Source: Candidatus Latescibacterota bacterium (GTDB taxonomy: Bacteria; Latescibacterota; UBA2968). Taken from it: a DNA stretch of 64,000 nt. Below the pieces are notes generated by a model that did no database searches, was not told the DNA's origin, and was given only the letters and a program-made list of their open reading frames with translations. Below, one piece after another: positions 9,867-17,197 of this stretch. The position numbers and the translations under genes are program-made. The stretch is from contig OZ242311.1 in the NCBI GenBank assembly GCA_965207885.1, positions 1,184,001 to 1,248,000 on the forward strand, given 5' to 3'. How positions within the stretch are numbered: position 1 is the stretch's first letter; each line of letters begins with the position of its first letter.

Positions 9867-10769
9867 TTACCCCGTTTTAGTGGATAGTGTAGAACTTTCA
9901 ACCCCGTCACCTTTTGCCATCAGTTTTTCATAGGTGATGGGCGATTGGTACCTGATCGCAGAGTGTCTGCGGTGTGGGTTATACCACCCTTCAATATACT
10001 CGAAGATAGACAGTTTGGCCTGATTATGATTGGGGAAGCTATGCCGGTCTATCAACTCGCATTCAAGGGTAGCAAAGAAGCTTTCACACAAGGCATTGTC
10101 AAAGCAATCGCCAACCGATCCGACAGAGGGTTTGACCCCCATTCTTGCACAGCGTTGACCAAAGGCATAAGAGGTATATTGAGCGCCTTGATCTGAATGA
10201 TGGATGACCCCATCTGGTCGTCGGTTCCAAAGTGCCATATCCAAGGCATCTAAGACCAGTTGGGTCTTCAGATGCGAGGCCATTGCCCAACCAACTACGC
10301 GTCTGGAGAAGGCGTCGAGAACAACAGAGAGATACAAAAAGCCAGACCAGGTTTTTATGTAGGTAATATCAGCGACCCACAGCTTGTTGGGCTTATCAAC
10401 CCTAAAGTCTCGCTTAACCAGATCAGGGGCTTTCTCGTCTGTGATAGACCGGTATGTAGTCAGGATACCTTTTCTTCGGCTCACACCACATATATTGGCT
10501 TGTCGCATCAGTCTTGCGACCCGTTTCTTGCTGATGTGGACACCTACTTCGCGCAGATCCTGAAAGATACGCGGTGCGCCATAGGTTCCATTAGAACGCT
10601 GATGAAAGGTGCTTATTTGTTCTGTTAACTTTTCATCGTCCTTTGCCCGTTTAGATAAAGGTCTATTACACCAGGCATAATACCCACTGGTGGAGACACC
10701 CAGCACGCGGCATAGCATGGTGATCGGATGGATGGCCTGATGCGCCTTTATGTATCTGAAGATTTTGGG
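9867..10769 (-). CDS. IS3 OrfB DDE transposase, expressed as an OrfAB fusion by -1 frameshift
   Basis: WVADITY, HHSDQGAQY, DNALCESFFATLECE, YNPHRRHSAI integrase core. The OrfB frame opens at the C_CCA_AAA slippery heptamer (10763-10769). Confidence 0.92.
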   Translation of the reverse strand, partial: PKIFRYIKAHQAIHPITMLCRVLGVSTSGYYAWCNRPLSKRAKDDEKLTEQISTFHQRSNGTYGAPRIFQDLREVGVHISKKRVARLMRQANICGVSRRKGILTTYRSITDEKAPDLVKRDFRVDKPNKLWVADITYIKTWSGFLYLSVVLDAFSRRVVGWAMASHLKTQLVLDALDMALWNRRPDGVIHHSDQGAQYTSYAFGQRCARMGVKPSVGSVGDCFDNALCESFFATLECELIDRHSFPNHNQAKLSIFEYIEGWYNPHRRHSAIRYQSPITYEKLMAKGDGVESSTLSTKTG

Positions 10770-11059
10770 GGTATCGCATCGGTCTCCGCTGCGAACCAGG
10801 CCGCGGCTTTTGCAAGGATCTCACGCTCTTGACGCAAGCGTTTATTTTCTTTGCGAAGCCGCTGAAGTTCTTCTCGCTCACGACTGGTCAACCCATCGTC
10901 CCGACGGCCTTCATCGCGGTCTGCTTGACGCACCCAGGCACTGATCGTCTGAGCGGTCGGCTCAAACTCTTTGGCCAAATCGCTGGCACTACGGCCTGAT
11001 CTGACCAGCGCGACCATTTGCTGGCGAAATGCTGATGGATATGATCTTTTTCTTCCCAT
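10748..11059 (-). CDS. IS3 OrfA (HTH plus leucine zipper)
   Basis: YPSAFRQQMVALV...LAKEFEPTAQTISAWVRQ HTH; ELQRLRKENKRLRQEREILAKAAAWFA zipper; AGGAG RBS. Confidence 0.93.
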   Translation of the reverse strand: MGRKRSYPSAFRQQMVALVRSGRSASDLAKEFEPTAQTISAWVRQADRDEGRRDDGLTSREREELQRLRKENKRLRQEREILAKAAAWFAAETDAIPPKSSDT

Positions 11060-11147: not shown

Positions 11148-11756
11148 TCATTGAGAGGACGAGTTTCGTTGGACCCATTTCTCAATCTCAGGTTTCGCCA
11201 CTTCGATGATCTCAATAAGGCGGTTGCCTATATCCTCAACTACACGATCAGGATCAGTGTGCATCTTGATAAGGGTATCTTTATTACTCCAATCTGTGTA
11301 GTTCCAATAGGGAGATTTCCAAGGGGGTGATTTTAGAGGCTGATACCAAATCCACCACTTCGAGCGTTTGCCTTTTCCTAATTCCTCATCCAGCTTACAG
11401 CTGAGGTGCTGCATTAATGCATTTGACTCAGGATCACTACCAACTCCGATGATATGATTACTGAGATCCTTAGCCTGCTTCTGAAGTATTATATATACCG
11501 GTTCGTTTTTTAACACAGCAAATTTTCGAGACACGCCAAAACTAAGGTAGTTGGCCCCATAGGGGTTGTCGCAAAGCCCTGTTTCCCAACACCACTGCGA
11601 CATATCAAGTTTTTTGCAGATAAAGCCTTTGAGTTTCTCCAAAAAAGTTTTGATTATTAGTTCGCGAATCTCCTGGGTCAAGTCCATAATATCCAGTGCC
11701 ACGTCCAGATTTTCCAAAACATGTTCGATAACAATTTTTCTTTTATTCGTATGCAT
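11148..11756 (-). CDS. Hypothetical Trp-rich protein coupled to the upstream nuclease (202 aa)
   Basis: ATG at 11756 preceded by GAGGAG; overlaps the 3' end of the nuclease gene by 14 nt. Confidence 0.65.
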   Translation of the reverse strand: MHTNKRKIVIEHVLENLDVALDIMDLTQEIRELIIKTFLEKLKGFICKKLDMSQWCWETGLCDNPYGANYLSFGVSRKFAVLKNEPVYIILQKQAKDLSNHIIGVGSDPESNALMQHLSCKLDEELGKGKRSKWWIWYQPLKSPPWKSPYWNYTDWSNKDTLIKMHTDPDRVVEDIGNRLIEIIEVAKPEIEKWVQRNSSSQ

Positions 11757-12447
11757 CACCGTTCTCCTCAAAAGTAAAAGGTGGTCGGAACACGTCACGG
11801 ATGTAATCCCTAAAATCGTGCAAAAACCAGCGGAATTTATCGGACTTGCATAGTTGCCAGCACTCCTCAATCCATTCCGGAATATCTGACCTATATGAAA
11901 GCAGGTATAACTCGCCCTTCTGAATAAGATTGTCGGGGTTTTCTATGGTTTCGGGTTTTCTGCCATCTGGAGTAATATAAATCAGGCAACATCGTTTATA
12001 TGTACCTTTGAGATGCTGGTAGTAATCCCTTAGTTGGTACTCCTGTTCACGATCCCAAGGCTTATTCTCAATGCCAATCCCGAAACCTTCAAAACCAACA
12101 GTAATATCGATTCGGCGATGCTGATTTTCGTTGTAGTGAGTTGGATCTTCGCGCTTGACTTGTCGTTGTTTGCAGGATAGTTCAGCTACTTGGCCAGGAT
12201 TGAACAGACACCTGAGAAACGCATCAAGAAACTTGCCTTGCTGACCATGGGAACCATTGGCATCAAGCAGACAGGCGATAATATCGGAAAGACGATTTTC
12301 ATTAGGTCTGATAAATTCGGAGATGACATTGAAATCTGTTGAAAGAAAAGGGTCCCAACGCCGTTTTTCTTCTCGATAAATTTGGAGCTTTTGGCGCAGG
12401 ATCGAAGAGAACATCTCTAAACGCTGCCTGTAGTTCTGCTCATCCAT
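11743..12447 (-). CDS. PD-(D/E)XK nuclease-family protein (PDDEXK_4-like)
   Basis: ENRLSDIIACLLD...HGQQGKFLDAFL, RRIDI, IGIENK, QLRDY, LIYITPDG motifs; AAGGAG RBS. Confidence 0.8.
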   Translation of the reverse strand: MDEQNYRQRLEMFSSILRQKLQIYREEKRRWDPFLSTDFNVISEFIRPNENRLSDIIACLLDANGSHGQQGKFLDAFLRCLFNPGQVAELSCKQRQVKREDPTHYNENQHRRIDITVGFEGFGIGIENKPWDREQEYQLRDYYQHLKGTYKRCCLIYITPDGRKPETIENPDNLIQKGELYLLSYRSDIPEWIEECWQLCKSDKFRWFLHDFRDYIRDVFRPPFTFEENGDAYE

Positions 12448-12596: not shown

Positions 12597-12625
12597 TTGA
12601 CCCCAAAAATTTAGACATTTATACT
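12597..12625 (+). promoter_or_regulatory. Sigma70-type promoter of the ArsC-like gene
   Basis: TTGACC (12597-12602), 17 bp spacer, TATACT (12620-12625). Confidence 0.65.
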
Positions 12626-12664
12626 TCATTTGAGACACTCTTCATCGCAAAAAGGAGATTTAAC

Positions 12665-13015
12665 ATGTCAAAAATCACCATCTACCACAACCCCAACTGA
12701 AGCAAATCCAATGGCGCAATGGATATATTGCGCGCTGGCAACGTCGAGTTCGACGTCATTGAATACTTGAAAACACCGCTGAGCGAACAGGACTTGAGAA
12801 AATTTCTCGCGCTTCTGCCCGGTGAACCCAAAGACATGATTCACCCCAGTTCCTTTGAAAAACTGGGACGCGACATGGATGATTACAATACCCCCGATGC
12901 ACTCGTCGGCTTGCTTTTGGAACATCCAGAAGTCATGAACCGCCCCGTGTGCATTCGCGGAGATCGCGCAGTCATTGCCCGACCCTCAGAAGCCGTGCAT
13001 GAACTCTTCGACTAA
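12665..13015 (+). CDS. arsC: ArsC-family (thioredoxin-fold, arsenate reductase-like) selenoprotein, 116 aa, Sec at codon 12 (TGA 12698-12700)
   Basis: AAGGAG RBS then MSKITIYHNPN*SKSNGAMDIL..., matching ArsC MSNITIYHNPACGTSR with TGA at the catalytic Cys. In frame with the 12719 ORF (IEYLKTP, HPEVMNRP, AVIARP). Confidence 0.88.
12708..12738 (+). promoter_or_regulatory. Candidate bacterial SECIS element
   Basis: Perfect stem GCGCAAT (12714-12720)/ATTGCGC (12727-12733) with a GGATAT loop beginning 20 nt after the TGA; lower CCA/TGG pairing. Confidence 0.75.
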
Positions 13016-13017
13016 AA

Positions 13018-13052
13018 AAACAGCCGCCGAGACCTGAACCTCAGCGGCTGTT
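13018..13052. terminator. Bidirectional intrinsic terminator between convergent genes
   Basis: AAACAGCCGC...GCGGCTGTTT stem with an A-run on the left and a T-rich tract on the right. Confidence 0.8.
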
Positions 13053-13072
13053 TCTATTTACATCTTATAACC

Positions 13073-14895: not shown

Positions 14896-16364
14896 ATGAC
14901 ACAACGCCCAAACATCCTCTTCTGCATTGCCGACGATCAATCCTGGCCCCACGCCAGTGCTTATGGCTGCCCCTGGGTCAACACCCCGGCATTTGACCGC
15001 GTCGCACGCGAAGGCATTCTCTTTAACAACGCCTTCACACCCAATGCCAAATGCGCCCCATCCAGAGCCGCCATCCTCACCGGTCGCTATTCCTGGCAAC
15101 TTCAAGAAGCCTGCAACCACCTCTGCTTTTTCCCATCGGACTACGTCACCTATCCCGAACTTTTCAAAGACGCCGGATACGCCACGGGATTCACCGGCAA
15201 AAGCTGGGCACCGGGAGAACCGGGAACTTATCCAGATGGCTCACCGCGCAAACTCGTTGGCCCCGAACACAACGACCTCAAACTCAATCCCCCCACAAAA
15301 AGCATTGCCAATATAGACTACGCCGCCAATTTCGTGGCTTTTCTCAATGCCAAACCCGACGACCGGCCCTTCTGCTTCTGGTATGGCGGCAAAGAACCCC
15401 ACCGCGGCTACGAATACGGCTCTGGCGTGCGCCTCGGGGGAAAATCCCTCTCTGACATCGACGAAGTACCTCCCTGCTGGCCGGCAACCGAAGACGTCAA
15501 AAACGACATGCTCGACTACGCCTTTGAAATCGAATGGTTCGACAAACACCTGGGTCAAATCCTCGACATCCTCGAAGAACGCGGCGAACTCGACAACACC
15601 CTCATCATGGTCACCTCAGACAATGGCATGCCCTTTCCGCGCATGAAAGGCCAACTCTACGAAATAGCTTACCACATGCCACTGGCCGTCATGTGGAAAG
15701 ACGCGATCGAACCGGACCGAATAGTTGACGATCTCATCAACTTCGTTGACTTTGCCCCCACCTTCCTCGAAGCTGCGGGCATCAGCATCCATCCTCAAAA
15801 CACTGGCAAAAGCCTCATGCCCATCTTCAAATCCAGCAAATCGGGCATCATCGACCCGGAGCGCACCGTCCTCATCTCGGGCAAAGAACGCCACGACATC
15901 TGCCGTCCCGGCACCGTGGGCTATCCCATCCGCGGCATCCGAGATCACCACCACCTCTACCTGCGAAATTTTGAACCTGACCGCTGGCCAGCCGGCAACC
16001 CCGAAGTCTATTACCGCAACATCGACGACTCACCCACCAAAACGCGCGTCGTCGAAGAAAAAGAACAGGGCAATGAGACCTACTGGCAACTCTGCATGGG
16101 CAAACGCCCCAAAGAAGAACTCTACGATATCCAGACCGATCCCCACTGCATCACCAACCTCGCCGAAAGCGCCGACCACCAGACCATCAAAACGCACTCT
16201 GGCAAAAACTTCGGAAGACCCTCAAACAACACGGCGACCCCCGCATAGAAGGCCGCGGTCACATCTTTGACGAATACCCCGTCACCAATCCAGAACAGGA
16301 ACAAAGAGTCAAAGAACGGTTCCGCATCGCCAGAGAAACGGGTATCTTATTTAAAAGCAATTGA
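14896..16364 (+). CDS. Formylglycine-dependent sulfatase with an apparent frameshift near 16189-16192
   Basis: PNILFCIADDQ, CAPSRAAILTG, TSDNG, EELYDIQTDP. A natural-looking C-terminus (LWQKLRKTLKQHGDPR...) continues in another frame to TGA at 16362-16364. Confidence 0.85.
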
Positions 16365-16417
16365 CAAATCGCCTGATACTCGACCTACGGATATAAATTC
16401 ACTTGAGGAGAATTGAT

Positions 16418-17197
16418 ATGGACCTTGGATTAAAAGGAAAAGTTGCGGTTATTACGGGCGGCAGCGAGGGAATCGGCAGAGGAATCGCATCGCGGTTCCT
16501 GGAAGAGGGAGCGAAGGTCGCGATTTGTGCGCGACGCGATGATGTCTTGCAGCAGGCAGCAGAGGAACTTCGTGCCTCAACTGGTGATGTCCTCGCTGTC
16601 CCTGCTGACGTGACCAAACCGGAAACGCTAACGAGCTTCATCAACAGAGTAGTCCAGCATTTCGGACGGATTGACATCCTGGTCAACAACGCTGGCCGGT
16701 CTGCCGCGAGCGCCTTCGATGATCTGGACGACGATGATTGGCATGCCGATTTAGATCTGAAACTGATGGGGGCTGTACGTTGCGTGCGTCTGGTCATTCC
16801 TCAGATGAAACTCGGCGGCGGCGGACGGATTATCAACGTCACGCATCCGGGGGGCAAACAGCCTGGCGCAGCTTCTTATCCAACCTCTGTGAGCCGCGCA
16901 GCGGGAATAGCGATGACCAAAGCGCTATCCAAGGAACTATTGCCGCACAATATCCTCGTAAACACCGTCTGCTTGACTTCTATCAAGAGCGCGCAGGGAG
17001 AACGCGCCTGGAAAGCGGAAGGCTCCCCCGGCACTTTAGAAGATTACTGGACTGAGCTGGCTGAAGAGCATCCGCTGGGACGTTTAGGTGAGCCCTCTGA
17101 TGCTGGCGCGCTCGTCGCCTTTCTCGCTTCGGAATGCGCTTCTTTCATCACCGGCACGGCGATTAACCTCGATGGCGGATTGTCCAACGTAGTATAG
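16418..17197 (+). CDS. Short-chain dehydrogenase/reductase
   Basis: TGGSEGIG, DILVNNAG, FITGTAINLDGG; GAGGAG RBS. The canonical YxxxK appears as TSVSR. Confidence 0.9.
   Translation: MDLGLKGKVAVITGGSEGIGRGIASRFLEEGAKVAICARRDDVLQQAAEELRASTGDVLAVPADVTKPETLTSFINRVVQHFGRIDILVNNAGRSAASAFDDLDDDDWHADLDLKLMGAVRCVRLVIPQMKLGGGGRIINVTHPGGKQPGAASYPTSVSRAAGIAMTKALSKELLPHNILVNTVCLTSIKSAQGERAWKAEGSPGTLEDYWTELAEEHPLGRLGEPSDAGALVAFLASECASFITGTAINLDGGLSNVV

Follow-up and report, generated by a model that had tools for sequence, protein, structure and literature searches.

The 64,000-nucleotide stretch of DNA analysed here (the window), positions 1,184,001 to 1,248,000 of contig OZ242311.1 from a Candidatus Latescibacterota bacterium (assembly GCA_965207885.1), contains an ArsC-family gene in which the UGA at codon 12 is very probably decoded as selenocysteine (Sec). 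The coding sequence occupies 12665..13015 (+) and is a single monocistronic gene for a thioredoxin-fold ArsC-family protein of 116 aa. Read through from ATG 12665, it gives MSKITIYHNPN-U-SKSNGAMDIL..., with U at residue 12, 104 codons after the TGA and the stop TAA at 13013-13015. The Sec codon (12698..12700, +) begins the motif U-S-K-S (UxxS) and is aligned with Cys12 of R773 ArsC. A selenoprotein had been proposed here in an earlier reading of the letters alone (the sequence-only reading), which pointed out that the open reading frame (ORF) track begins the gene at 12719. This was confirmed, since the table 11 list holds only a 98-aa ORF starting at ATG 12719. This means that annotation with table 11 gives a fragment without the active site, and that reading through the TGA adds a selenoprotein.

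The TGA is conserved among orthologues. When 61 genomes of the same class were searched, orthologues of 63-99% identity with exactly one TGA were found in 31 of them (own genome counted), covering all 21 genomes of the genus, and the 33 homologue rows at 32-44% identity from the same search had no stop. All 30 fetched loci had TGA at codon 12, no indel and 104 codons after it. At the same column in a second set of 100 loci there were 26 TGA, 60 TGC and 14 TGT codons, and the column is that of Cys12 of R773 ArsC, so the placement of the TGA at the catalytic cysteine (Cys) in the sequence-only reading holds, with 26 TGA against 74 TGC/TGT. A protein-query search of another class, the Acidimicrobiia, gave TGA in 21 of 45 loci; 24 of the 54 no-stop rows in that search were examined, namely those with loci. 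Taken together, these sets hold 45 unique orthologous sequences, reaching down to 40% identity, and none of them has lost the TGA. Codons 1-11 vary synonymously but encode a conserved peptide (for example T5 as ACC/ACG/ACA/ACT and Y7 as TAC/TAT), which indicates that the region before the TGA is translated.

By record title, the carriers are Candidatus Latescibacterota metagenome-assembled genomes (MAGs), Gemmatimonadetes-labelled records at 63-69% identity, Entotheonella at 55% and Acidimicrobiaceae at 40%. In metagenomes of sponges and coral reefs, the locus or a close relative was found in 14 studies. RNA-library contigs from two studies (383, 387 and 424 nt) cover 12640-13055 with 9-23 differences from the window and with the TGA unchanged; their ends at 13022-13055 fit the predicted unit, which is a weak hint. 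The TGA is also present in one DNA run at depth 137. The sequence-only reading had named TGC or TGT at 12698-12700 as a refutation, and the independent assemblies and RNA-library contigs show TGA. It had also looked to the homologues, and the TGA together with a hairpin is retained in orthologues whether close or distant, the remote homologues having Cys. As an observation on binning, a 2.7-kb contig titled uncultured Gammaproteobacteria (L075) carries a gene 97% identical to the Latescibacterota gene that falls inside that genus in the tree, and it is probably a mis-binned contig.

The host genome encodes the machinery required for Sec. It is assembled as one contig (C1) of 6.23 Mb, is 97% complete and belongs to a Latescibacterota lineage of sponge metagenomes. 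The tRNA-Sec gene scored 70.1 bits and was called SeC with anticodon tca (UCA) by ARAGORN. The selB gene (386 bits) adjoins selA (575 bits), and selD (369 bits) adjoins the tRNA-Sec gene and is itself Sec-containing (...VSCGG-U-ASK). All four (tRNA-Sec, SelA, SelB and SelD) are above their curated cut-offs, and thus selA, selB, selC and selD, the presence of which had been put forward as a check, are all there. In addition, a TGA was found at the expected Sec position of at least 11 further genes (AhpC-TSA, Rdx, selD and an ArsC/Spx-like paralogue), with a single in-frame TGA in 7 of 29 AhpC-TSA matches and in both of the two Rdx (SelW-like) matches. The nearest of these other TGA-bearing genes lies at C1:1178048-1178419, some 5.6 kb ahead of the window's first position. 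Counting the window gene, there are at least 12 candidate genes with a TGA, which makes the lineage selenoprotein-rich. The in-frame TGAs found were all at known Sec positions, in selD CGG-U, UxxC, UxxS and CxxU motifs. Internal stops were absent from selA, selB and 22 of the 29 AhpC-TSA matches, and therefore TGA is not a general sense codon; the earlier statement that it is not recoded genome-wide was borne out by the same genes.

Two loci outside the window were also noted. The ArsC/Spx-like paralogue at C1:3345909-3346250 (+) has an in-frame TGA in the context MSKISFYTWNR-U-SSC (UxxC), followed by an 8-bp hairpin with a GUG loop that begins 15 nt after the UGA. It scored 25.6 bits against NF041106, for which the cut-off is 85, and the same TGA-bearing UxxC paralogue is present in 13 genomes of the genus, the window's own included. 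At C1:5699077-5700926 (-), the tRNA-Sec gene, the Sec-containing selD and a TGA-bearing AhpC/TSA-family gene are adjacent.

Other accounts of the in-frame TGA need to be considered. If the gene had been broken by a nonsense mutation, there would be either no product or the 98-aa ORF from ATG 12719, and this ORF is indeed all that table-11 calling yields. However, the 98-aa product would be without the catalytic residue, the TGA stands at the same codon in every one of the 45 unique orthologues down to 40% identity, the 11 codons before the TGA change in the manner of coding sequence and correspond to the first ArsC strand, and the Sec machinery is complete. Loss of the gene is therefore extremely unlikely. 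Low-level UGA read-through exists in bacteria, and it could be proposed that the UGA is read through by some other means (by near-cognate Trp or Cys, or under a changed code) or that the TGA is an assembly error. Against this, TGA is not a general sense codon here, the in-frame TGAs are all at known Sec positions, and the TGA is found in 31 separate genome assemblies as well as in the depth-137 DNA run and in RNA-library contigs of two studies. We regard this as very unlikely too.

We favour Sec decoding, and propose that the UGA at codon 12 would be decoded by the organism's own SelB and tRNA-Sec, directed by a recoding signal within 60 nt after the UGA, such that Sec would substitute for the nucleophilic Cys12 of a glutaredoxin-coupled ArsC (UxxS for CxxS). 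The view that Sec replaces the catalytic Cys, which was that of the sequence-only reading, is supported by the Sec machinery, the Cys/TGA column, the conserved TGA and a candidate selenocysteine insertion sequence (SECIS). From these comparisons we infer that selenium would be incorporated at residue 12.

The candidate SECIS, hairpin 1 (12714..12733, +), reads GCGCAAU(G)-GAUA-(U)AUUGCGC and starts 13 nt after the UGA, with its stem at 12714-12720 / 12727-12733. The loop can be read as the 4-nt GAUA or as the 6-nt GGAUAU, in either case with a leading G, and the stem is accordingly 7-8 bp. The published bacterial SECIS (bSECIS) model has a loop of 3-9 nt, an upper stem of 4-16 bp, a G at loop position 1 or 2, a UGA-to-loop distance of 16-37 nt and a minimum free energy (MFE) of <= -7.5 kcal/mol (PMC13188914). 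Hairpin 1 agrees with this model in 4/4 of the published criteria (loop GAUA, spacing 21, -12.5 kcal/mol); it is the SECIS-like hairpin of the sequence-only reading, and that of the close relatives also passes, with loop GAUA or GACA. It is also like the canonical bacterial SECIS of the E. coli fdhF type in its G-leading loop, 7-8 bp stem, 21-nt spacing and energy of -12.5 kcal/mol. At 9 of this genome's 11 other Sec sites, the MFE fold has an apical hairpin of 4-8 bp that starts 13-15 nt downstream of the UGA, with the loops AGGA, GGA, UGGAU, GGUC, AGUUA, GGGAU (twice), GGU and GUG; at the remaining two the hairpin was read by eye. Hairpin 1 sits where these other SECIS elements sit, and SelB would bind there. 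In an unfitted, ungapped alignment of 38 distinct sequences, the hairpin-1 cells pair in 77-83% as opposed to 11-55% in slid controls. At equal GC (0.61), the folding energy of the hairpin-1 region is -11.9 kcal/mol for Sec forms and -6.8 for Cys forms. Among the GC-rich Acidimicrobiia, Sec and Cys forms do not differ in folding energy (p = 0.68, 0.99), and energy is not used as an argument there.

Several results weigh against Sec decoding with hairpin 1 as its signal. In distant subfamily members hairpin 1 fails the published criteria, the loop criterion being the one concerned. The bSECIS criteria are also unspecific, since 33 of 98 Cys homologues pass too, and this makes the criteria a weak test. 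The fold of the 71 nt after the TGA has z = -2.09, with 8 of 200 shuffles folding as well. Of the fold that had been suggested as a check, the hairpin itself is present, and the 71-nt fold taken alone is only modestly better than chance. When synonymous codons were shuffled, hairpin 1 had z = -1.8 and the second hairpin described below z = -1.6; the support from this is weak, much of both hairpins being fixed by the peptide that they encode. Hairpin 1 shows little covariation (4 double-change pairs versus 2.0 +/- 0.8, equalled in 21 of 500 shuffles), and Rfam on 12600-12850 returned no family, only two chance snoRNA matches at E > 3. The RNA-library contigs, for their part, prove neither transcription nor transcript ends. 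Nevertheless, hairpin 1 is most likely the SelB site, a view that we hold with moderate confidence.

The sequence-only reading described a single hairpin. Hairpin 1 stands, but a second and fully invariant hairpin had been overlooked. Hairpin 2 (12741..12756, +) reads ACGUCG-AGUU-CGACGU, spans codons 26-31 (N-V-E-F-D-V) and begins 40 nt after the UGA, which places its loop at 46 nt. All six stem pairs and the AGUU loop are present in each of the 45 unique subfamily sequences, and only two variants of the hairpin were seen, each keeping a G-U pair. Codons 26-30 show no synonymous change (permutation p = 1.75e-4): out of 46 conserved degenerate columns only six use a single codon, and five of these six are the consecutive codons 26-30. 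The codons GAG and TTC are in the minority elsewhere in these genes (25% and 39%, respectively), yet are fixed in hairpin 2. The hairpin-2 sequence occurs once in the host genome. We conclude from these patterns that hairpin 2 is under RNA-level selection in this subfamily, and it probably assists or shares in recoding.

The extent of this sampling bears on how hairpin 2 is understood. Because the seed patterns used to find the distant Sec forms contained NVEFDVIE, that set is biased towards hairpin 2; the search was repeated with a protein query in another class. In a rapidly built tree of low resolution (116 columns and 158 rows, many open forks, identical proteins and those of <95 residues dropped), which serves for coarse grouping only, 39 of the 45 sequences group as a single clade, and so few independent events are represented. 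The other six sequences belong to a mixed Acidimicrobiia clade, in which the full stem is found in 3 of 19 Cys forms and AGUU in 1 of 19. One Cys form, L293, carries hairpin 2. A second Sec-ArsC subfamily in the Acidimicrobiia (15 sequences, UxxS) is without hairpin 2, and 14 of its 15 members pass the canonical criteria, mostly with GGUC, CGUGC or CGUGA loops at a spacing of 17 or 23. The hairpin-2 17-mer AACGTCGAGTTCGACGT was considered as a Sec-specific signature and ruled out: among the metagenome matches listed (at least 80), 75 of 80 were unrelated ORFs encoding NVEFDV, and only 5 of 80 were ArsC-like with TGA at -42. Judged by translation, the unrelated ORFs with AACGTCGAGTTCGACGT look cold-shock-like or solute-binding-like. 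As a separate observation, one Acidimicrobiaceae MAG has two Sec-ArsC genes approximately 6 kb apart, C13:10173-10517 (-) and 16246-16548 (+), one from each subfamily, one with hairpin 2 and one without.

It is possible, though we think it doubtful, that hairpin 2 and not hairpin 1 is bound by SelB, with hairpin 1 acting as a folded spacer in a non-canonical bipartite SECIS and so letting hairpin 2 reach the ribosome. Its invariance (6/6 pairs and AGUU in 45/45 sequences) extends over at least four phylum-level labels, and the absence of synonymous change at codons 26-30 despite the minority codons GAG and TTC points in the same direction. The loop has a G then a U at positions 2-3, which is typical according to the published model (PMC13188914), and AGUU or AGUUA loops are found at two other Sec sites of the genome (one in the MFE fold, one by eye). 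In the distant members the loop of hairpin 1 falls outside the model, which leaves hairpin 2 with the only small G-leading loop, and the Cys forms of the mixed Acidimicrobiia clade mostly lack hairpin 2 (full stem 3/19, AGUU 1/19). On the other hand, the hairpin-2 loop at 46 nt from the UGA is beyond the published 16-37, the isolated hairpin reaches only -7.0 kcal/mol, and the 15 Sec-ArsC genes of the second subfamily use canonical GGUC or CGUGC hairpins in its place. Further, the Cys form L293 has hairpin 2, the 17-mer is not Sec-specific given that 75 of the 80 listed metagenome matches are unrelated, and the concentration of 39/45 sequences in one clade reduces the weight of the count. We therefore keep hairpin 1 as the preferred SelB site, and put forward only tentatively a bipartite signal in which a variable hairpin 1 is combined with an invariant hairpin 2 that would be the SelB docking site or be required for it. 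If true, this would represent a bacterial SECIS class beyond the 16-37 nt model, spread across Latescibacterota, Gemmatimonadetes-labelled MAGs, Entotheonella and Acidimicrobiia. The canonical SECIS model is without a second hairpin, whereas here there is an invariant one whose loop is 46 nt beyond the UGA. Narrow literature searches for two-hairpin bacterial SECIS elements found none described, and hairpin 2 is the only element of this gene for which these searches gave no description. It thus offers a concrete test case for a bipartite bacterial SECIS.

With regard to the protein, the sequence-only reading called it an ArsC-family reductase. The family assignment stands, since Pfam ArsC PF03960 matches residues 7-113 with 41 bits against a cut-off of 24, and the R773 ArsC structures (PDB 1i9d, 1j9b, 1jzw) are the best solved-structure matches (E = 1.5e-15, residues 1-114, ungapped in the first 60). 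R773 ArsC is a glutaredoxin-coupled enzyme with Cys12 as its nucleophile. The two proteins are alike in fold, length, the N-terminus MS.ITIYHNP.-C/U, the residue-12 nucleophile, Ser15, Arg94 and Arg107; the alignment places the TGA at Cys12, S15 at Ser15, R93 at Arg94 and R106 at Arg107. The R773-type pair of a nucleophile at residue 12 and Ser15 (CxxS) is found here as U12 and S15. By contrast, the gene here has Sec for Cys12 and His for Arg60, lies outside an ars operon context and is below the equivalog cut-off. Membership of Spx / MgsR is not indicated, as the motif is UxxS, not CxxC, and TIGR01617 gives 39.3 bits versus 75. By analogy, the chemistry would be most like that of glutaredoxin-coupled ArsC, with Sec as the nucleophile.

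Functional identity with R773 ArsC is doubtful, and four findings speak against arsenate reduction. Among the NCBIfam models TIGR00014, the glutaredoxin-type arsC equivalog, fits best, yet its 85.7 bits fall short of the cut-off of 106.05 (for the Acidimicrobiaceae Sec form, which belongs to another phylum, the score is 89.2 bits). Arg60, Arg94 and Arg107, which we take to act as a triad in R773 ArsC, are incomplete here, with Arg60 replaced by His. For Acr3 (TIGR00832) and ArsB (PF02040) there were 0 matches in the genome (one contig, 97% complete), which carries two ArsC-like selenoprotein genes, other exporters not having been searched. Finally, the gene neighbours are unrelated to arsenic (PD-(D/E)XK nuclease, HpcH-type aldolase, aldo/keto reductase, sulfatase). 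Close orthologues have His60 in 30/30 cases, as do 23 of 26 Sec forms in the 100-locus set and some related Cys forms, while Arg60 is retained in the Entotheonella and Acidimicrobiaceae Sec forms; His60 is therefore a lineage trait and not a Sec trait. We would put arsenate reduction at slightly short of an even chance at most, and a different Sec-dependent reaction, on an oxyanion or in thiol redox, is as much a possibility. The combination of His60 with the lack of any Acr3 or ArsB match calls the name "arsenate reductase" into question.

Selenoproteins of this type have been predicted before. A 2005 study of the Sargasso Sea reported "Arsenate reductase, UXXS" as a new selenoprotein family, represented by 14 sequences and with a SECIS predicted (PMC1088965), and the UxxS ArsC was found again in the Global Ocean Sampling data in 2008, this time as 77 Sec sequences alongside 784 Cys homologues (PMC2398784). 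A 2006 listing for the Deltaproteobacteria includes "ArsC-like" selenoproteins, and reviews of 2022 and 2026 list ArsC-type selenoproteins as known from bioinformatics only, with function uncharacterised (PMC9312934, PMC13188914). The sequence-only reading, which held that ArsC-like selenoproteins had been predicted before but are rare, was thus correct about the prediction (2005, 2008), whereas their obscurity was overstated in view of the 14 and then 77 sequences and the coverage in the 2022 and 2026 reviews. Since the UxxS family has been published since 2005, the gene is a new member of a known family. It is like the family named "Arsenate reductase (ArsC) 1" in belonging to pfam03960 / COG1393, in having Sec at the catalytic Cys and in having a stem-loop right after the UGA. 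The published UxxS family came from marine metagenome reads, whereas this copy is in a closed Latescibacterota genome with the full Sec machinery. The UxxC ArsC/Spx-like selenoproteins ("Arsenate reductase 2", NF041106 ArsC_rel_Se_1) are of the same superfamily, but the window gene is UxxS. Narrow searches of the literature for Latescibacteria with selenocysteine found nothing relevant. A copy in a closed genome, together with its cognate SelB and tRNA-Sec, would provide a defined system for expression.

The signals flanking the gene agree with a single transcription unit. A sigma-70-like promoter, TTGACC-17 nt-TATACT (12597..12625, +), matches 10 of 12 consensus positions, the consensus being that of sigma-70, which may not be that of the host phylum; there are 2 promoter-like sites in the region compared with 0.8 +/- 0.7 in shuffles. 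The Shine-Dalgarno sequence AAGGAG (12652..12657, +) is 7 nt 5' of the ATG. The frame 5' of the ATG reads KRRFNM or KRRFDM in 19 of 26 correctly placed rows, and hence the upstream DNA is conserved among the closer relatives of the genus. Downstream, an intrinsic terminator hairpin with a T-rich tail occupies 13018..13059 (+), the hairpin itself being 13018-13053, with -20.9 kcal/mol and z = -7.2; 0 of 200 shuffles were equally stable, and a simple terminator scan missed this hairpin because its loop is long. It ends the monocistronic unit as the sequence-only reading had it, and the promoter, AAGGAG, ATG 12665, TGA codon 12, 7-bp stem and terminator of that reading were all found where it had placed them. 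Just upstream on the other strand are a gene fragment encoding the helix-turn-helix of an IS3-type transposase (HTH_Tnp_1) at 10748-11059 (-) and the PD-(D/E)XK nuclease-family gene at 11743-12447 (-).

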